This document shows, piece after piece, positions 1,068 to 61,674 of a stretch of DNA of 64,000 nt (positions within the stretch are counted from its first letter, which is position 1; every line of letters begins with the position of its first letter). Source of the DNA: Octopus vulgaris (taxonomy: Eukaryota); assembly GCA_951406725.2 (NCBI GenBank), contig OX597823.1:35526001-35590000 (forward strand), read 5' to 3'. Below the pieces are notes generated by a model. It searched no databases. It was not told where the DNA came from and was given only the letters and a program-made list of their open reading frames with translations. Both the position numbers and the translations under genes were made by a program.

Positions 1068-1830
1068 TTATATATTTTCCATTTTGTTCGATGTCTGCCA
1101 TCTTTCTGGCAGCTTCATGATTCTGCGCTCATAGAACCTCTGGTCCTTATCATCCAAAAACAGAAGCAAGTGCGATTTCAGGTCATCATCATTGTTGAAT
1201 GTTTTACCATTCAAAGAATTTAGCAAACTTCGAAATAAATGATAATCTGATGGTGCAAGATCAGAGCTGTATGGTGGGCGTAACCTCACTTCCCAACAAA
1301 GCTCTACTAATTTCCCACAAGTTAGCAAAGACATGTGTGGTCTAGCGTTGTCATAGTGGAACACGATTCCTTTACGATTTGCTAATTCTGGCCGTTTTTC
1401 TTTGACTGCTTCCTCCAATTTCATTAGTTGTTGACAATAAACATCTATATTGAACATTTGGATCCTTGGAAACAGCTCAAAATACACAACACATTTGTAA
1501 TCCTACGAAATTGACAGCATGACCTTTTTTGATGAAATTCGGCTTACGATGTAGTTTGTGCTGGTTCATTATGCTTGGACCATGATCGTTTTCGATTGAT
1601 GCTATTGTAGACAATCCATTTTTCATCACCAGTGATGATTTGTTTAAAAAAAAGTCGATTTCATTGCGTTTGAGATGCATATCACAAATATTGATTCATT
1701 GTGTTAAGTGAATCTTTTTCAATTTATGTGGAGCCGAAATTTCGAGTTTTTTAACGAATCCAAAACATTTCAAGTGATTTTCAGTTGTTGTGCGTGATAC
1801 ATTTCACCTCTCTGCAATCTCTCGCACGGT
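1068..1830 (-). mobile_element. Mariner (D,D34D) transposase pseudogene fragment
   Basis: ORF 1068..1487 has FHYDNARPH...PPYSSDLAPSDYHLF with 34 residues between the last two catalytic Asp. An upstream frame has FLKQIITGDEKWIVY. Frameshifted, no TIR recognised. Confidence 0.92.
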
Positions 1831-5387: not shown

Positions 5388-5455
<68 letters not shown>

Positions 5456-6040
5456 GAGTGAGAGAGCAGTGCATGTCATCAAAGTGACACTGGGGTAAAA
5501 TATACGAAGCCCAGTATACTCATCATGACTACCCGTCTGATAAGGGTACATCAGGCACATGCATCACAACCATATTTGCGCGACATGGTGATCTCATATC
5601 AAGATAAACAGCGCATGACCTTGTAGGTGGGGCCCAATTAGAATTTTCTTCTGGTCGAATAGCCCATTCCGCTCAAAACGTCCCCGAATAAGGATTGTTT
5701 AAGGATGATGAACGAAACACCCATATTTCCAAGGGTGAATTATCCAAACCCCAAAGAATTCCTCTCAGCATATGGCTATGATGCTCACCCACTACTTCAG
5801 CTCGTGATCAGAAATGCACATATCATCAGCCACCGGGTGACATGCTCAACTGGTTAAGGTCAAACAACTGACAAGCAAATCTGTGGTATTGAGAATAATA
5901 TTTGCTGTAGTCCATCTTTTATACCAAGACAAAACAATGTACATGGTAACACTTCCAATCAAGATCAGAAGCCATGATAGCCACTACCTGATACTGCATC
6001 AAGGCATGTGAGAGCCACTGCCTGGTGCTGCATCAGGGCA
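5456..6040 (-). mobile_element. Non-coding interspersed element bracketed by (TAA)n and (CAA)n tracts, possibly non-autonomous
   Basis: 585 bp of higher-GC non-coding sequence with sharp borders at trinucleotide microsatellites. A 30-bp unit is tandemly duplicated at one end (5970-6040). Strand inferred from the TAA tail. Confidence 0.5.
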
Positions 6041-33652: not shown

Positions 33653-34045
33653 TATATATATATATATATATATAAACATCATTCTTTTATACAAATTTGG
33701 CCCTGACGAGGCTTGAGACCGCTGCAGTGATAGAGACTAGAAAGAGGAAAAAGAAGGGAACTCCAAATCCAAAAGAATATCATAAACTAGAGGACAAATA
33801 GCATTAAAATTATGACGAACAAGAAGCTCATCAGAGAAATGTTACGCTAGGGAAGAAAAGCGGGTGACATATTTAAATGCTTTGACAGAGGTTACAAAAC
33901 CAGAAAGTTCATCACAGCAATGACCATAGAAATTCTTCTAGAAAAGGTACATATATATTACAGTTCTATATTTAAGAGATGAGGAATTATGTATATTATT
34001 TACATTATTTACATTTGACGGATATTTGTCCTCATCTTTGTTGTT

Positions 34046-34091
34046 AACACAACATTTCGGCTGATACACCCTCCAGCCTTCATCAGATGTC
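34046..34091 (-). ncRNA. Minimal type I hammerhead ribozyme in PLE 3' region
   Basis: gacat CTGATGA a ggctg gagggtgtat cagcc GAAA tg TT gtgtt. Stem I gacat/gtgtt, perfect stem II ggctg/cagcc, stem III reduced (tg is likely decayed cg, which the 61 kb copy has). Confidence 0.7.
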
Positions 34092-34151
34092 TTGGGAAAA
34101 CTTCGAACCTGCGTTCTCATTGCTAAGGTATTTTTCAATATTATTATTATT

Positions 34152-34218
34152 TGCCTGAAATCGGACTCGGAATCTTGGGGTTAGTAGCCCACGCTCTTAA
34201 CCACTACACTATCTGCCC
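34152..34218 (-). promoter_or_regulatory. tRNA-Ser-like segment with Pol III A and B boxes inside the PLE 3' UTR
   Basis: gggcagaTAGTGTAGTGGttaagagcgtgggCTACTAAccccaagattccGAGTCCGATTTCaggc. A box, a CT-ACT-AA loop resembling tRNA-Ser(GCT) ggactgctaatcca, and a B box (gaattcgattcc in the 61 kb copy). Confidence 0.7.
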
Positions 34219-36596
34219 GTGGGCAATTATGGAGTGAATTTTAGGGCTTAGAAATCTAATATTTTCCTATCGTTTCTTATTACCTGTTCCCATATGCTAT
34301 TTATATCTGTACTAGGTCTGCTTAGTACGTTGTTGTGTCCTAGTATAAGTGCTGCTTCTTTTAGTTTTCGTATTTTCCTGTGGTGTTCTTTATTTCAACT
34401 TCATCCCACAGGAGGAGGTGGTCGTCATATGGGCCGCCATCTTTTGTATCTTTTCGGAGAGGCCTTTCAGATAGGGTAGACAAACTGTGGACAGTTTATT
34501 GGTTTCATCCGCTCTTTTCTTCATAATTGGAGTAGATAGTATGTTTTGGGGGTAGATGTTGCTTAATAGATTGTTACTGAGCTTGATCATTTCTTCGTGG
34601 TGTGTATCACGATCGCTACTTATATTCTTCGCTCGATGTTTTTGGCTCTGAGCAATCCCTCTCTTTACACTGTATGGATGGTGAGAATTGAAGTTGAGGT
34701 ATCGTCCAGTGAAGGTCGGCTTGCGATATACGGATGTCCTGAATCCATACTTGGTGCTTGTTATTAATACGTCCAGGAATGCTAGCTGATTGTCTTTTTC
34801 CTTTTCCATTGTGAACTGTATGGGTGGCTTTATTGAGTTTATATGATCTAACGGCATTTGGACATCTTCCTGGTGGAGCCAGAGTATAAATGTGTCATCA
34901 ACGTATCGCAGCCATTGGGTTGGTTTTAGTGGTGTTGATCCTAAAGCCAAATTCTCCAAGTATTCCATGCATATATTGGCTATTATCGGTGATAATGGCA
35001 AACCCATAGCTGAACCCTCTTTTGTCGATATATATTAGTGTCCATACTGAAGTAGGTAGCTTCTACACAGATTAACATTTCCATTAGGTTTCTTATTGGT
35101 ATACTAGTGCGTTCTTTTAGACGGGTGTCTATCACTAGTTTTTCTTGCATCATCGATAGTGCTTCACTAGTTGGGACTTTGGTGAACAGACTTATCACAT
35201 CTAGAATCACCATCTGGTTGGATTAAATGAGGGTATCCTTGATCAATTCTGTGAAGTGGGTAGAATTCTTCACGTATGATGTTGACTTTCCTTCTAATTG
35301 ACAAGAAAGCGGCTCAGTGGATGACATGCTGAACTTCTACAGCTCACTATATGTCTTTATGGAATACCATCCTTAAGGAGACCGTACATGTGTGGTAGTT
35401 TACTGTAGTGTTGACTTAGTTGTCTGTACTTTATTGGTGTAAAGGGATCCTTGTTCTTGATCAAGATCTGTTACAACTTCCTCTCTGCTTTCAGAGTTGG
35501 GTCGTTCTTTACTTTGCTGTAGCTAACATCACTTATAAGACTTGCCAATTTTTCCGAGTAGTCAGACCTGTTCATCACTACTGTAGCATTTTCTTTGTCC
35601 GCTGGAAGTATTATGATGTAATTATCACTCTGTAGTCTTTTGATAGCGACCTTTTCTTCCTTAGTGATGTTTGGTTTGGGAAGTTTCGCTTTTTCTAGTA
35701 CCTGTCTCACTTTCCACCTTAGTTCATGTCCCTGAGCTTTTGGCATCTTTATGGCTATCACTTCAATAGGGGGTTTATGTCCAATTATGGAATGCACTTG
35801 ATGGTTGTTGCAAAGCTGAGACCATTGTTTAGTACCGCTTTTTCAGATCTTTCTAGATGTCGGCTACTTACATTAATTACTGCTTTCACAGGTGGGTGAC
35901 GGACTTCAGTTTTCATTCTCTGACCTTTGAGTTTCATAGACTTCTTAATCTGGCGTGTCTTCACCATTTCAAATTCTTTCATGTGCGACTTTTCTAGATA
36001 TTGCTGGATTCTCTTTCTATCATTATCTCTGGATATTTTCCTAAGTGATGAAGACAACCTCTCTTTGATTTCGTTGTTTAGTTGATGTTTTTTTCTAACG
36101 ATTGTAATGGATCCTCTCACGGACGAGATCATATCCTGCCCTTTCCGCTACTCTTCTATCTTTATATGAATCCACTGGTGTCATTATATTCAAGCCAGGT
36201 GGTATTAGCTTTGAGTCTCTACATCTACACAGGAAAGTTAGAAATATTAAATATTTCTTCAGACCTGCTACTACCTATACACCGAGTCTTCACAAAAGTA
36301 AAAGAGAAAGAGAGAAAAAAAGAGAGAGAGAGAGCGAGACAGACAGACAGACAGACAGACAGAAAAAGCGAATATGTCCCAAGTATTTGAAAACTATGGA
36401 AATATTTTTAAAAAAGCATTTCATTTAATTTTTCCACAATTTAATTATTTTTCATGCTTTACTCTAAGTTGAAAAAGTCGTAAAGATTGAAACCGGTATT
36501 AAAATATTCTTCACGATAAAACTATTTTAGCATTTTCTACCTTCTCCTATTTTCCTTATACATATCAATTTGTGTCTTACTTTCCAACCTTCTACA

Positions 36597-37304: not shown

Positions 37305-39060
37305 AGCTAAATTGGCAAATTTACCATCAAATTCAAGGATGACTTAACAAAAATGGATTTGGACTACCTTGCAAATTTTGAAGTGGAAACAAGTAGTTTT
37401 CATGGGCTTCCTAAAATCCATAAATCCAAACAGGTCAACAACAGCTTAAAAGATTCCCAAACCAACTGATCTCAAATTGTGTCCGATTGTTGCAGGACCA
37501 GCATCCAGCATCCAAATATTAAGGAAGTTGCTGGACATAATTTTAAAACTTTTATGCAGATTAGCTCCCAGTTTCATCGGAGATGACATGGACTTCTTGA
37601 ACTATATCCCAGAACGGGTAAATAAAAAGATAGCACTAGTTAGCTTTGACATAATTAGGCTCTACACAAATATTTCCCATAAATATAGACTAGAAGCAGT
37701 AGAACTCTGGATAAAGAAACATCCGCAAAAAATCCAGGTGAGCTTCTCAAAAGAATTTAAACTTGAAGGTTTACAGATAGTACTGGAAAGCAACTACTTC
37801 TTCTTTGATAATCAATATTATCTACAAACACAAGACACTGCGATGGGGACGAAAGTCGCATTAACGTTTGATACACTAGTAATGGTATAACCAGAAGAAA
37901 AAATCTACACCCTATCCAGAACTACTTTTGACCACCACTTTCAAACCTAGCTTATAGGAAACTGGAAAAGATTCTTAGATGACTGCTTTATATTCTGGAA
38001 CCGAAGTAAGAAAGACCTTAGAACATTTCTTAAATTAATAAATAGCATTCATATCTAAATCTAATTCACAATAGAAATGAATGAAAACGAACTCCCCATT
38101 CTGGACATCCTTATAATTAAAGAAAATGAGATAGTTACAAGGGACCTCTACTACAAGAACACACGCACAAACAGACACACACACACACACACAGAGACAC
38201 ATACACAGACACACACGAGCACACAAAAAGGAACATACCATTTAATTTGGCAAGGCGCATATGCTCAATAGTCATAGATATAGTTGGACGAGAGAAACGA
38301 CTAGCAGAACTTAATATATTCCTTCAGAAACAAAAATATCCCAAGTTAATTCAACATGCCATAGCAAAGGAAATCCCAATCTCTACCTTACTCAAGCTAG
38401 GTGTGAAAATAAAAATACAAATACAAATACTCCGTTTGTAGTCACCAACATCCTTCACTCAGACGATACTTCCCAATTCCACGTCAATCACCACATCTTC
38501 AACAAATAACTAAAAATCACAAATTATCAATAGTCGATGACAACCACCTAACCTCAAGAGACTCCTAAAAAAAGGCGAGATTCGCATTTGAAAAAGAAAC
38601 GATTCAAGTAACCAACTGTGGTTACTTGAACGATTCAAGTAACCCCGTTGTGAAGTTACTTGAACGATTCAAGTAACCCCGTTGTGAAGTAATTGAACAA
38701 GGGACAACCAAAGTACGCAAGAATGGGAAGAAAATAAAAGTAAATCAAGCATGAATTGAAAAATAAAAAATCTCATCTACTGCATCATACGCCCACAATG
38801 CAATGAAACTACATTGGGGAGACACGAAAGAAACTGACCAGCCGTGTATATGTGCATAAACAACAAATTATGGATTCGTCTCTTAGGAATGTTCCATGCA
38901 GTGAACATCTAGATATCCGTGCAAATGGAAAATTTAAAATATTTCCACTTTACAAAATAAACGATGAAAATGTTCAACTACGAATGGCAAAAGAAGAATA
39001 CTTTATCAGAATTCTAGATCCGAAAATAGCCAACACTCCATATAATTATCAATGGTAAAA
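37305..39060 (+). mobile_element. Decayed Penelope-like element (RT + GIY-YIG), 5'-truncated, starting in (TA)n
   Basis: FHGLPKIHKS, PIVAGP, VSFDIIRLYTNI, TAMGTKVA, WKRFLDDCF, FTIEMNENELPILDILI, NLIYCII.PQCNE..IGET and EEYFIR. Many stops. Confidence 0.92.
38598..38697. repeat. Short tandem array (34-bp period) whose units contain a perfect 10-bp hairpin
   Basis: gttacttgaa-cga-ttcaagtaac at 38621-38643 and 38655-38677, with partial units on each side. Confidence 0.9.
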
Positions 39061-40308: not shown

Positions 40309-40767
40309 TACAGGACACCACAGATAAACGTAGAACACAATGAGAGACGAGAACATAAAATCAAACAAGGAAACGGACTTTTTTTAAACATCGAAAAAAC
40401 AGGGTACAGGACAAACAATACAAGGAAAATTCCCCTTCATCAGCTGTCCCTAGTTCGACTCAAAGTGTGTTTCGAAGGTAAGGACAGAACACAGTCGAAG
40501 CAGTCCTTCAAAATTCTTTTGCAGGGGGGTCCCTGTGCAAAATAATTTTATTTAATTCCTTTTGCAGGAAGGACTGCTTCGACTGTGTTCTGTCCTTACC
40601 TTCGAAACACACTTTGAGTCGAACCAGCGACAGCTGATTAAGGGGAATTTTCCTTGTATTGTTTGTCCTGTACTCTGTTTTTCGTTGTTTAAAAAAAGTC
40701 CGTTTCCTTGTTTGATTTTATGTTCTCGTCTCTCATTGTGTTCTACGTTTATTTGTGGTGTCCTGTA

Positions 40768-40772
<5 letters not shown>
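40304..40772. mobile_element. Fold-back element (about 205-bp inverted arms) inserted in (TA)n
   Basis: 40304-40509 is a high-identity reverse complement of 40568-40772. Both outer ends abut (TA)n. Related to the 42405-43240 element (gtacaggaca, gaga.acgagaacataaaa, ttcccttcatcag). Confidence 0.85.
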
Positions 40773-40816
<44 letters not shown>

Positions 40817-40820
<4 letters not shown>

Positions 40821-41127
40821 CAACACCAACGCTAGAAGAAATACGACCATCTTTGGTTTCAAGACGAATGGTATTCATCCATCATGATAATGCTCGACCA
40901 TATACCGCGAGGATTACATTCTAATGGCTGGAGCAGTTTGAATGGGAAACGATGCCCCACCCACCATATTTGCCGGACCTTACCCCATCGGATTATCATT
41001 TATTCTGCAGTCTTCAAAATTATTTGGACAGAAAAAATATGAATTCTGTAGATGAGGTTAGAACATTAATGGAAGAGTATTTTTCGTCAAGGATAAGTGA
41101 ATTTTGGAAGAGGGATCTTGCAAGTAT
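40817..41127 (+). mobile_element. Mariner transposase C-terminal fragment
   Basis: FIHHDNARPY...WETMPHPPYLPDLTPSDYHLFCSLQN with an in-frame stop. Confidence 0.9.
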
Positions 41128-44399: not shown

Positions 44400-46270
44400 A
44401 GACGAAGAGAAAGTAAAAAAATATTAATGCAGTTATGTTTGCTGGAATTGCCGAGCGGAGCGACATGAAAAACTGCAAAAACTATGAAAAGAAGACACAA
44501 AGCGGGAAGAAGAAAACTCCATAAAAATGTGGGAAAACAAGAGTGGTTCACTAACTATGAAGAAACTATGGAGAAAAATCCATTATGAAAACGAAACAAC
44601 TACAAAAAGTACTAGGAAATCGAAAAAAATATAGACACCAACCCCAGAGGAACCGGACTATGGTAGCGAACCTCTAATTACCCAAAACATACGGTGAAAG
44701 GAAGTCCATCTCACTCCAAGTACAGACTAGAAACCCATATTCCACTATATATAACACTGCAAATAACCAACACATGAAATATAGAAGACAACGATCAACC
44801 CATCATTTCAAACGCAAAGAAAAAAATGACATGAAAGACAAATAACATACAGACAACCACCAACTCGTAATAACATAGACCCTAGATGGATGAATACATG
44901 GGAAGAAAGACAGATAATATACGGACAGCACAGGTACTATAATAGAAATAATAATCATGAAAACTCAAGCAATCCACGATTTACGACCAAATATCCCATA
45001 TATCCTGAATGGCGAAAAAAGCAGGGAAGATGGGAAGATGGGAAGAAAAAACGCCGAAATCTGAAAATGGAGACACGATAGCACAATTCCTTTTTTTAGG
45101 GAGAAAATACCAAAATCACGCACCGAACCCGTTGAAACACAAAATTTAAATGAACACACAGAACATATAGTCCCGCAGATCATAAATTTGTCAAAGAGAA
45201 ATCTCAACAATAATGAGATGAACCTCCTATTAAAGGGTTTCAAGTTTACCCCGATACTCACCCCTTATCTCATTGAACTGAAATCTGATATTGAACACTT
45301 CAACCGCCGCCTCCGATTTATAGAATTCTTCAGCAGTAAGGAATTAAATGATGAATCAATAGTCAGAAATAAACTCCACTTCATCCCCTACAAGAGAAAG
45401 TACAAATATTTAGACGCGTATATAGAAACAATTTTAAAAATTCCTCTAAATTCCCACAGACACAAACAAAACCTTTGTGAAGAAGAAAAGGAAGCCTTAC
45501 AAACACTGAAGAATGACAACCCAATAAGGGAAGGGCGATAGTAAGTATGGACAAGGACTATCATAAAGATATAATATTGGAAATGTTAACAAACCAAACC
45601 TACTACAAGGAAGAACCATGACACCAGAAAAAACAATGCACCAACACAACAACTAAGTCATTTTTTAGATATACTCCTGAAACCTTTATGCCTTTTAATA
45701 CCCAGTAATGTACGGGATGACATGGATTTTATCCAACACATCCCTTCCACTGTCGCTGAAGGTACTATACTTACAAGTTTTGATGTCACTAATACTAATA
45801 CTAATATACCTCACATGTTAGGCCTAAAAGCAATCAAACACTGGGTAGAGAAACACAGAGGACGGATAAATGAGCGCTTCAAGACTGACTTCATCACCAA
45901 GGCCATACGCCTAGTACTAAAAGAAAATACCTTTAGATTCGACAATAAAACATATCGACAGTTAAATGACACGGCTATGAGTACGCTGTTTGCGCCTTCA
46001 CATGCAAACTTAGTTATAGAATACTCGGAAGAAAAACTTTGAGAATGTAGGAAACTTTTGATCAGAAGTACAAGAAATATATCCTTAAAAAGTGGAAACG
46101 CTTCCTTGATGATTGCTTCATCTTCTGGGATAGATCAATGAAGGTCTAAGTGTATTTAACAATACTGAACATACTAAACCCATCCATTAAATTCCCTCTG
46201 CCAATGTGCAAGAATCCACAGGCAACATATCCGACAAGAGGAATGACGCAAGATTCCATTAAGTAAACAT
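44400..46270 (+). mobile_element. Decayed Penelope-like element (N-terminal region and RT, internal deletions)
   Basis: IINLSKRNLNNNEMNLLLKGFKFTP, FNRRLRFIEFF, EEKEALQTLKND, TSFDVT..TNIPH.LGLKAI, TAMSTLFAPSHANL and WKRFLDDCF. Related to the 37305 element. Confidence 0.88.
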
Positions 46271-46374
46271 CTCGAAATATGCAGCGACGGAAAATTCAAA
46301 TTTTTTTCCTTTTACAAATGTGCACGGGACGATCCGCAATACCGAAAAGCAATGGAACTACATTTCTACACAAA

Positions 46375-46798
46375 ATTCTCTCTAAAATTGAATGTTTAAA
46401 AGAAAAGCGGAAACAGTACATTTTGTACTCTAAATATAACTCAAATATCGGAAACATAATGCGCATCTCTGTAAATATTCAGATGTAAATGTGTAGCATT
46501 GAGATGTTCTGAGCTTTGCGTATTTTTCTAAATTGTAAGTATTGTACTGATGTTCTCTGAAGCAAAAACATGAAAGTGAAAGTGGCGTGATTGAAGTTAC
46601 ACAGTAAAGACATGGACATATCCCCACCACACACACACACACACACACACATCATCAAGTGATTCTCTATAAAATTGAATGTTTGAAGGTAAAGCGAAGA
46701 ATTACATTTTTTATTCCAAATGTGACTCATCTCTACAAATGTTCAGGTGTGTATATGTGTAGCATTGAGATGTTCTAGCTTTACGTATATATATATAT

Positions 46799-54837: not shown

Positions 54838-57835
54838 ATGAAGTTAAACGCAAATGTTATTCAAATCTTTATACTTCCGACATATGTTTCGAAGAAAACA
54901 TTGGTATTATTTCAGAAGGAATAAAATGATGTAAGACAGAGCAATCTTCTCAGCAGGGGATAAAAGAGAAACAGAACGCATCAATAAGACATTTTTACCG
55001 AATGTGATTGCTGCATATATGATGAAGGGAACGCTGGTAAGTTATTTTTTTAGAAAACCGTTAATAGATATAACGTCTTATTAGTAAGACAAACTTCTAT
55101 ATTAACCGACAATAAAGACATTAAACAGCCTTCTAACGATCTAACTTCTGAATTCAAGAAATTGTTTAAATCTAAAAACAATCCTCCACCTAACCTAAAA
55201 TTGAAACACTTTGAAAACTGGTCTGTCGTGAGGAATGGGAAATTCCACCGTTCACCCGTAAGGAATAAACATCTTAGCTATCTTCCCAATATCACCAAAG
55301 AAATTCATAACATGGATGGGATACTGGTTCAATCGGATAAAACAGGAAACTTATACATACTTACCAAGGATTTTCCCTAGAATTGCTTAGAAAAGAAATA
55401 CAGAAGAATTATAAGATTACTGGTAAAAGTGCAATCAGGAAAGCCAACCTTGAGGCTAAGAAAATTATGGACATGAAAACCGAACCCCATCATCCCAAAC
55501 AAGCTCGTTTTATTTTAAAAGATCACAAACAAAATTTGTTTAATAACCCATCCTTACGACTTATTTGTCCTTCTAGCTCTGACATCTGTGTACTTAGTAA
55601 AAACATTATAGACAAATATATTCCTACCGTAGTTAAAAAAATTAAAGCTTAATTTATGGTCTAATTCGTTCCAAGTGGTGGACTGGTTCAATTCTATTAA
55701 TAACAAGAAGTGCACTAAGTTTGTCTAGTCTGACATTTTTAGTTGCTATTCCTCTATCAACCTAGTTGTACTTAACAAGGCACTCTGGCTCACTTACAAC
55801 AAAGCAGGTCTCACCAAGGAGGGAATTAATGTCGTGTTAGCCGCCGGAAAATCTAATATTTAATTTGAGAACAAGCTGTGGGTCCGTTAAGATAAGCCCA
55901 ACAGTTTTGATGTCACGATGGGAAGTTCTGATTCAGTACAAATTGATGGTTTGGTCGGTATATATATCCTTTATGAGATGGCTGAGCAATTCCCAAACAT
56001 CAACGGAGGTCTATATCGTGATGGTTGTCTACTCTATTTTCAAAATACTTCTAACCAAAATCTACAAAGGGTTAAAAATAGGTGCGTTAAATTTTTCCGA
56101 AACGTGGGCATTGTTTTCGATGATGATATAACTAAAGCCAAATTTTTGGATATTACCCTTAACTTATATAATGATTCATATTTCCCATACCATAAACACT
56201 CAACTAATTTAAAATATATTAGCTCTTTCAGTAATTATTCTAAGGTTATTACAAGGAATTTACTTAAGAATATTTCACTTAGACTTTCTAGATTATCTGC
56301 CAGTATTGATTTCTTCAACGATAAAGCCGAATTTTATAAATCTGCCAAACCTGAAGCTGGTTATAAAGAAAAATACCTATATCAACCTTATTGACATTAA
56401 ATCCACCTCTATTAATCAGGACATGAAATCAAGTCATAACGGTAATAACAATATAAATTTTAGTTCGAATAACAACACTAAATTGAGAAATGTAATTCTA
56501 CAGCGTAAGGGAGCTAACCGTTCTTTAAGGCCCTTTTTTTCTTTGTAAAAGTACATCTAGGACTTTTAAAGATAATTACCCTAATAATAAGGGTTGATAA
56601 TTCCATACGGTAAGCAGATCAAATCTAACCTCCCTTACTAGTTTCGTGAGGCTATAGATAAGAATTTCCCACAAAATTCAAGATACTATTCCATTATCAA
56701 TTCACACCGGATCAGGATAGGGTTATCAAAAACCTTTCACAAATCATCTCTTCTCATAACAAAATTTGTTAAATAAAAATCCACTTAATGAAAATTATAA
56801 CAATGATATTATTGACACTAACCGTTCCTTAAACAATAATAGCAACAATATTAGTATTTCTGATATAAATTCCAATCGCATTCGTTTCCTTAGCAGTAAT
56901 TCTAAGACTAAAAACTATTTATCAATGTAAAACTACTTCCGCTTCTGAGTTTTTTATATAGGTAGTTCTTCATCTCAGTTGTTCAAAAGAATATCTTACC
57001 ATTACTCGACATTTAGACATATCAATGAACGTAACAATAATGGGCTTAGTAAATTAATTTGGTCTTTAAGGAACATAATAATTTGATTTGGAATGGAATA
57101 TTCTATCTAGAACTTTCCCGTATGATAAAAGTAAATCTTTTTGCTCGCTCTGTAACGATGAACTGTATTTCATCCTGTTCTTAGAGAATCCTCTTGTAAA
57201 CACGTTTAAAGAACGCGTTTATCGTTGCAAACATTGGCAAAAAATATACCTCTAGTTCCTATAAGTGATTTCTGCCACACTATAAAATTCGAACTTTTAA
57301 GTGTCTTCTTACATTTACTGCCACTAAATATAACTATTTCCACACCTTTAATCTGTATTCCTATTCACCTATCGCATTATATTTCTCCACTTTAGTTTTC
57401 TGCTAATTTCTCTCTTCCTCCTTTTTCTCGTTCTATAGATTGTCTTTGACGTTATATCTAAGAACGGTTTTTTTTTAATGACTTACTAGCGTTCCCTTCA
57501 TCTTAAATGCAGTAATCACATTCGGTTAAAATGTCTTATTCATGCGTTTTGTTACTCTTTTTTCCAAAGATTGTATTGTTTTGCATCATTTTAGTATTTC
57601 TGAAATAATACCAATGTTTTCTTCGAAACATATGTCGGAAGTATAAAGATTTGAATAACAACTGCGTTTAACTTCATTTCTTTATTTATGTATGTTAAAT
57701 AAAAAGCATTTCACCAACACCTCGAATTTCTACCTTTATAAGTAGGCTGTTACATCCTTGGAACTTATATGAATTTTTGCTACCCTGGTAACTATTCATT
57801 TATTTTTTCCGTGTTATTTGTAAACATTGAAAAAA
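54838..57835 (+). mobile_element. Decayed Naiad-like Penelope element with inverted pseudo-LTRs
   Basis: SDKTGNLY, FILKDHKQN..NNPSLRLICPS, MGSSDS.QIDGLVG.YIL, GGLYRDG.L, FLDITLNL, PYHK, C-terminal IYQCK...HYSTFR...LSKLIW...CSLC..E...RCKH. 54838-55077 is an inverted copy of 57448-57677. (TA)n on both sides. Confidence 0.88.
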
Positions 57836-60410: not shown

Positions 60411-61355
60411 TAGACATATAAATGCTTATGTTATGTATATATGAATGAATGTAATTTATGTATATATGTTGGCATGTATGTATGTATTGATCTATATTGA
60501 CTTCGTGTTGTTTTGCAATGTATGTATCGACAATACACCTTAGGAGGTTTAATCCAACAAATCTCATTAAATATTTCATTAGTTTTCCTGATTGTTATAC
60601 GTCAATACATCTTGATACAATTATATTATGTACTTGTCAGATTTTTCTCATGCTTATTTCTGTCTTTCTAATTTGCTGTCATGTTTAATTTACAATATGT
60701 TGTATAAAGGTTTAATAAAATATAACCTAAGTAATATGCTTGTATGTTTAAAATGTATAATAACCATTGTTTCTCAAACGCTAATGATATTCTGTTCGTT
60801 TATTTACTTATTCTTGTTAACTAGGCTTGCCTATACTTCTGGGGTTGTATGTTTCGTATGATTTGGTTTCGAAGGAGACCTCCGTCGAGTAGTGCTTTTG
60901 ATGTTGATTGTCAATAACTGCAGGAGAAATACGGGGAAGAAGAGATTGTAGAGAGTCAATGTTCTGAAGCGAAACGGTTGCAATTTGTGTTTATTGTGGT
61001 GCCTGAGAAGATGAAAAGTATACGAGTGGTGATATGGAAGTGAATATGTGTTGGCTCACCTCCATATGGCACTTAGAGAAAGGTGTCATGTAACGAGGCA
61101 GTTCCAAGGGGCAGAGTTTACAAAAGCAGTAACTGAAAAAAAATTACAGAATGAGGAAACAGCAACCCTGGGGACGAAAAGCTAAATGTATTGATAAGTA
61201 ATTCCATGTAGGGTGTTGCTTAACACACCCAAATTTTGGAGTAGAATTCAATTGTCTCACGTGACCAATATGGAGAGTTAGTAATAGTTAGAAGTGTAAG
61301 TATTCTCTTACTCGCTTGACAGATGCATTTAAGTAATTTAAGTTAAATTTTAGCT

Positions 61356-61433
61356 CATCTGCCGTCGTGGTTAAGAACCCGGGCTACTAACCTCAAGATT
61401 CCGAATTCGATTCCAGGCAGTGACCTGAATAAC

Positions 61434-61491
<58 letters not shown>

Positions 61492-61674
61492 GCAACATCA
61501 AAAACACCTTAGGAATGAGAACCCAGGTTCGAAATTTCCGCAAAACATCTGATGAAGGCTGGAGGGTATATCAGCCGAAACGTGTCAACAACAAACAAGG
61601 TGAGGACAAATATTCGTCAATTGTAAATAATGTAAATAATGTACATAATTCCTCATCTCTTAAATATAGAACTG
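61356..61674 (+). mobile_element. Stand-alone tRNA-head + (AAT)n + hammerhead unit (solo PLE terminal repeat or SINE-like element)
   Basis: Colinear with 33961-34218 (-) and ends at the same base (aaatatagaactg). Contains CTGATGA a ggctg..cagcc GAAA cg at 61549-61582. No PLE coding sequence upstream. Confidence 0.88.

Follow-up and report, generated by a model that had tools for sequence, protein, structure and literature searches.

A tRNA-derived head in the terminal repeat of an abundant Penelope-like element family of Octopus vulgaris: a candidate Pol III promoter

A 290-nt segment on the minus strand of Octopus vulgaris contig OX597823.1 is best explained as the pseudo-LTR of an abundant, decayed retroelement family of the Penelope/Poseidon type, whose tRNA-derived head would, on balance, be an internal Pol III promoter that starts the RNA of the element. 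The arrangement itself is real, family-wide and new among Penelope-like elements (PLEs). Autonomous retrotransposons are usually transcribed by Pol II and SINEs by Pol III, and a tRNA-type promoter at the start of a protein-coding element would thus cross this division. All coordinates refer to the 64,000-nucleotide stretch that was analysed (the window; contig positions 35,526,001 to 35,590,000), counted from its first letter.

The element family and its terminal repeat

The focal copy is a dead member of a very abundant family; a query with the 290 nt returned 6652 candidates in the 2.8-Gb genome, 40 of which were scored (for the layout see Table 1). Its reading frame gives a Pfam RVT_1 match (E 6.4e-7 at 34390-35034) and lacks ~237 bp of the endonuclease at 34424/34423 in comparison with the copies L011, L016 and L020. 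The focal head departs from the pooled majority of 149 copies at six positions, of which the A box and the B box hold two each; in the focal hammerhead, ATGT replaces the ACGT palindrome of stem III (one CpG change). No copy of the family with an intact ORF was found among those examined; the column majority of 29 copies gives a stop-free frame of 784 aa with RT motifs and the endonuclease motif. The C-terminal half of relatives is 26-68% identical to Penelope-type proteins. Judged by similarity rather than by a tree, the family belongs to the EN+ PLEs of the Penelope/Poseidon type, and it has the features of EN+ PLEs, namely an ORF with RT and C-terminal GIY-YIG domains, partial-tandem pseudo-LTRs with inverted 5'-truncated arms, and a minimal hammerhead. 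An inverted 5' arm, which is present at many loci of the family, is typical of PLEs (PMC8557442).

Table 1. Features of the focal element and of the second repeat copy in the window
Feature	Position	Strand	Basis
Decayed, 5'-truncated Penelope/Poseidon-type ORF (RT + GIY-YIG)	34248..36230	-	Pfam RVT_1, relatives
Stop codon TAA of the focal ORF	34250-34248	-	
29-nt spacer between stop codon and head	34219..34247	-	
tRNA-derived head (Arg-like)	34152..34218	-	box patterns, tRNA alignment
A box of the head	34211-34201	-	
B box of the head	34166-34157	-	
(AAT)4 tract, length varying between copies	34140..34151	-	
ATG opening the ORF when the repeat sits upstream of the body	34118..34120	-	L063, L072, L083
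Minimal type I hammerhead	34046..34091	-	descriptor, 539 exact intact-form copies genome-wide
Tail: first coding stretch of the ORF, with both copy-end sites	33961..34045	-	90 copies
Second repeat copy, solo (head to tail, no ORF)	61353..61674	+	

Further decayed RT fragments lie in the window at 37450-37890 (+), 45065-46400 (+) and 55891-56394 (+), none with a relevant Pfam match; the first two we take to resemble other PLE families, and the fragments at 1068-1502 (-) and 40556-40924 (+) are presumably mariner transposase-like. A set of 22 contigs from bacterial genome bins (L341-L362), which are probably host contamination, encodes animal-type Penelope proteins, several with hammerheads, and with three short matches omitted these are the 19 related PLEs analysed below; two metagenome scans and one viral-contig scan gave no relatives with DNA context. 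The octopus sequences also include a young PLE family (L291-L306, e.g. G000:C17:42762900-42767300) that is 29% identical to the focal family and has a 781-codon open frame in 16/16 fetched copies; its repeat carries 4-6 CCAAT/ATTGG and 4-6 TGACGT words instead of boxes, and no hammerhead by the pattern used.

The sequence-only reading of the window had assigned the head to the terminal repeat of an autonomous PLE family, and had named as a check the share of copies in which the GIY-YIG C-terminus is joined to it. Copies were selected by the endonuclease region alone, which avoids selection for the head. Among 30 copies picked with endonuclease DNA, at least part of the head is present at the same junction in 29 (26 recognised by BLAST and three more by alignment; the exception, L041, is broken off before the head). 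With a coral protein query, 30 loci were taken out of 150 listed; all 30 belong to the focal family, and at least part of the head is present in 29 of them (L330 breaks off). Pooled, with six loci common to both samples, 52 of 54 distinct copies have the head 29 nt past the stop codon, and the other two end before reaching it. Of 30 copies selected by their N-terminus, 11 are immediately preceded by hammerhead and tail in sense orientation, and 6 extend to the head; because the same unit is also found upstream of the ORF, the terminal unit is a pseudo-LTR, and in these partial tandems the head lies ~100-130 nt upstream of the start codon. The junction count and the upstream units together confirm the assignment, and the count rules out a one-off SINE insertion at the focal locus. 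Copies resembling a head-free (empty-site) version of the family were only L062 and L260, with irregular deletions and no common breakpoint. The family also occurs in contigs of four other organisms.

Several insertions were noted around repeat copies. The solo copies L135, L140, L183, L187 and L199 start inside the (AAT)n tail of another repeat, a copy of which lies at 5391-5492 of the window, and other SINEs are lodged in the (AAT)n tract of the focal element itself (L095, L101, L113). A 5S rRNA match (76 bits) is located at L028:1225-1342 (-), ~160 nt past the 3' end of the copy and in the same orientation.

Across 149 pooled heads, the majority sequence agrees exactly with the A-box and B-box patterns, at tRNA spacing, and none of 20000 shuffled versions of the 290 nt passes the combined pattern. 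With 11 of 21 cloverleaf pairs surviving in the majority, the cloverleaf is lost and the boxes are kept; the perfect boxes could simply record what a donor SINE carried, instead of being a kept promoter. Of the earlier description as a tRNA-Ser-like segment with A and B boxes, the boxes stand and the amino acid does not: among 30 genomic tRNA genes (Arg, Ala, Thr, Cys, Lys and one called as Glu, with no Ser gene included) the best alignments are to tRNA-Arg(TCT) (z 6.7) and Arg(TCG) (z 6.6), the anticodon position reads ACT, and a long variable arm is absent. ARAGORN reports no tRNA in the window or in 60/60 loci, and Rfam neither a tRNA nor a hammerhead match for the window or the family sequences, the motifs having decayed too far, or being too minimal, for these models; by single-strand folding, neither head nor hammerhead has a significant z-score. 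The anticodon loop of the head (34187-34180, minus strand) reads TACTAAC, which we take to be a branch-point-like word; an intron is unsupported, with no splice-type joint among the RNA-read joints shown. The octopus SINE OR2 is an unlikely identity for the head, since it is described as a CORE SINE (PMC4758252).

Copy ends, the hammerhead and the route of copying

The 5' ends were read from the first 90 of 100 listed exact matches, in genome order, to the 52-nt intact-form hammerhead, which has 539 exact occurrences genome-wide. The B box is reached by 75 arms from 61 loci: 18 of these end within the head, 49 near its start (from 17 nt upstream to 8 nt inside the head), and 8 continue into the ORF; 49 of the 57 arms that reach the head start thus end there, a count in which paired arms from a single insertion are not independent events. 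Over the 8 nt up to and including head +1, arms stop at a rate of 0.084 per nt, compared with 0.001-0.006 further upstream, and the full-length copy L090/L251 begins at head +1 and L083 within a few nt of it. The 5' end of the RNA is placed at the head start because most copies that reach this point end there (60-86%), and transcription would begin at ~34225-34218, i.e. 0-7 nt before the head. The same palindromic junction, 7 nt before the head, recurs in 43 and 42 contigs, respectively, of two other organisms. By exact genome-wide counts the 25-mer at the head start occurs 2521 times and the 25-mer just upstream 479 times; the share of head copies joined to an ORF is 14% in the 90-copy sample, 19% from the raw counts (479/2521) and ~38% when calibrated on 54 copies with 10 and 5 exact matches, a noisy value with a wide error.

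Two clusters stand out among the 3' ends of the 90 copies, one of 22 near ORF nt 120-129 and one of 49 near nt 153-173, with some blurring by local alignment, and these clusters would correspond to start sites of reverse transcription. The picture resembles that in the anole element, whose hammerhead overlaps the start of the ORF and whose reverse transcription begins internally at two sites (PMC11167929).

The hammerhead is built of a 5-bp stem I, a CUGAUGA core, one unpaired A, a 6-bp stem II and a palindromic stem III, and its minimal descriptor passes in 4 of 20000 shuffles of the 290 nt. It fits all the minimal features listed for PLEs (unpaired base after position 9, G10.1-C11.1, palindromic stem III; list from PMC4209133). 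In related PLE hammerheads the core is kept, and the stem sequences differ yet pair in five of the six parsed, with stem I of L350 a single bp; covariation within the family copies was set aside as evidence, since dead copies change by neutral decay. The protein-coding frame includes the hammerhead in its first part: the natural copies L063, L072 and L083 can be translated from the ATG through the hammerhead into the conserved N-terminus, and the homologue P0003 begins with a similar N-terminal peptide. Where copies vary in length between the ATG and the end of the repeat, the frame is kept in 59/70, which backs the coding status weakly, since triplet repeats slip in threes.

Cleavage is predicted at a GUU site (34051|34050), 70 nt past the ATG, and would take place only in a dimer or with the help of protein. 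As the cut would remove the start codon, a role in limiting or recycling the RNA is more probable for the hammerhead than one in its maturation. Reverse transcription of the anole element mainly uses uncut RNA, and cleavage there needs protein (PMC11167929). It is therefore doubtful that self-processing, as first proposed from the sequence, is part of the copying route, in view of this analogy, of the ribozyme's position in the coding frame and of the solo copies, which span the uncut site.

If the head starts the RNA, as we prefer, transcription would cover the full 2.6-kb unit and continue into the repeat that follows, and the reverse transcriptase would start internally at two sites, ~125 and ~155 nt into the frame, as in the anole element. 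A start in the downstream repeat would give ORF-bearing, mostly 5'-truncated copies such as the focal one, and a start in the upstream repeat would give solo head-hammerhead-tail copies by run-off at the RNA 5' end, often joined head-to-head, so that the solo copies would, on the simplest reading, be short products of the same RNA.

Which polymerase starts the RNA

Pol III terminates at runs of four or more T (T4), and its RNAs are uncapped and usually short. The sense strand of the 2656-nt majority of 29 copies has 0 runs of T4 or longer and 30 such runs of A, where 4.7 T runs are expected from a base shuffle (P 0.009), 2.7 from a codon shuffle (P 0.037) and 4.8 from synonymous choice (P 0.002); where single copies do have T4 runs, these are private (no site is shared by more than two copies). 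The young family L291-L306, a control with equal T content and twice the Phe, has 8-9 T4 runs in 16/16 copies. Among the related PLEs from other animals, 17/19 have T4 runs, at 0.8-2.2x expectation, and the two T4-free relatives (expected 1.7 and 2.0) have no head; no A/B box pair was found near the ends of any of the 19. The deficit is modest: runs of four G are also absent from the focal majority (expected 1.1, not significant), and Phe is scarce in the focal protein, as in its closest relatives. A sense strand free of T4 runs is consistent with Pol III. We advance tentatively the fuller proposal that an autonomous coding retrotransposon swapped its Pol II promoter for a tRNA promoter and purged terminators from its 2.6-kb body, and that Pol III makes the full-length RNA, which is reverse-transcribed and perhaps translated; the protein could also come from a Pol II read-through RNA.

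It is rather unlikely, yet deserves the most weight among the alternatives, that Pol II starts the RNA from a TATA/initiator promoter at the junction of ORF and repeat, and that the head is a captured old SINE head which now serves as 5' leader only. Translation would then need no extra assumptions, and the family majority does have a TATAA word 34 nt before the head, overlapping the stop codon (mutated in the focal copy), and a CA in the start region just before the head. TATA words also precede the hammerhead core by 35-41 nt in the relatives L341 and L342, the promoter of D. virilis Penelope lies in the pseudo-LTR and was likened to LINE promoters (PMC2377424), and it has been argued that autonomous partners must use Pol II (PMC10886601). 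However, a Pol II promoter does not predict the absence of T4 runs, and no near-identical donor SINE head with another body was found in 30 head-only matches or in 993 kb of loci plus the window, both samples favouring the focal family. The TATA-like word suits Pol II as well as Pol III, and 5' ends alone cannot separate the polymerases, as the copy ends pile up a few nt before tRNA position 1 and a Pol II start would look alike. Three raw RNA-seq runs, chosen by species label, have about equal strands and a depth that falls from ~1000-1400 across hammerhead and tail to <15 at the ORF start, with no piled read starts or ends anywhere and no splice-type joint among the joints shown, a pattern that fits passive read-through or unstranded libraries and has no bearing on the promoter. 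None of the sequence records listed as holding the stretch is on record as RNA.

A division of labour, in which Pol II makes the long coding RNA and Pol III only short RNAs from solo repeats that spread as a Penelope-dependent SINE, is improbable. Solo copies do outnumber ORF-joined ones, contain both boxes and are slightly less diverged (7.0% vs 8.3%), and schistosome SINE-like repeats likewise join Pol III to a hammerhead (PMC6765202). However, 83 solo and 66 ORF-joined heads have no fixed diagnostic column between them (2 of 75 columns at nominal P<0.05), the full-length copy L090 starts at the same base as the solo copies, and the T4-free body would be left unexplained; moreover, the anole RNA needs the first 172 nt of the ORF (PMC11167929), which most solo copies lack or barely reach. 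The A and B boxes of tRNA-derived SINEs are thus present at tRNA spacing, and a separate non-autonomous lineage was not found. The suggestion that the repeat spawns a SINE-like RNA is accordingly unsupported as far as a lineage of its own is meant, as solo and ORF-joined heads share one sequence.

The 3' part of the spacer pairs with the first 10 nt of the head, and this hairpin could add to the pile-up of 5' ends. That the pile-up is nothing but stalling or fold-back of the reverse transcriptase there, with no promoter role for the head, is very improbable, since a stronger hairpin 372 nt upstream gives no pile-up (1/14 arms, a small sample) and only 1/49 head-start junctions has the ORF-type left arm expected after copying through the hairpin, even though the hairpin is among the strongest locally (12/1308 windows stronger) and many junctions are palindromic.

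Relation to known systems and implications

The focal family shares with anole PAc (PMC11167929) and D. virilis Penelope (PMC2377424) the single frame with RT and C-terminal GIY-YIG, the partial-tandem pseudo-LTR and the inverted 5' arms, and, as described for Penelope/Poseidon PLEs in the same sources, a minimal hammerhead over the ORF start and two copy ends that lie ~30-35 nt from each other within the initial 160 nt of the ORF. In contrast to both elements, it has a tRNA-derived A/B-box head at the promoter position, a T4-free sense strand and no intron joint in RNA reads. The Sm-alpha and Sj-alpha repeats of schistosomes (PMC6765202) also place a Pol III-type promoter before a type I hammerhead, with the upstream unit driving the next one, but they are short, non-coding tandem repeats, whereas the focal unit forms the terminal repeat of an element that encodes protein, and its hammerhead is of the minimal PLE type, inside the coding frame. 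A small-RNA-gene promoter in a terminal repeat, with boxes kept and RNA structure lost, is likewise known from the TRIMp3 elements Cassandra, Helenus and Ajax, which are non-autonomous LTR elements of 0.3-1.3 kb (PMC10886601). Like the animal non-LTR retrozymes (PMC7229834; bioRxiv 10.64898/2026.07.22.740005), the solo copies are non-coding hammerhead derivatives of PLE pseudo-LTRs; unlike the retrozymes, which form tandem arrays and for which the available parts of these sources describe no tRNA head, they are dispersed monomers or head-to-head pairs. A search of the full-text literature (subscription journals, Repbase, Dfam and supplements being outside its scope) returned no tRNA-derived promoter in a PLE repeat and no Pol III-transcribed autonomous retrotransposon.

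RNA start sites are established for very few Penelope-like families; in the focal family a start site is recorded by thousands of short copies, and the body bears a terminator signature. Should Pol II prove to be the polymerase, a captured tRNA head would still be fixed at the start of a retroelement. If Pol III is used, this polymerase can make a coding retroelement RNA of several kilobases, which raises the question of its translation, and many annotated 'tRNA SINEs' in such genomes would be the terminal repeats of Penelope elements.
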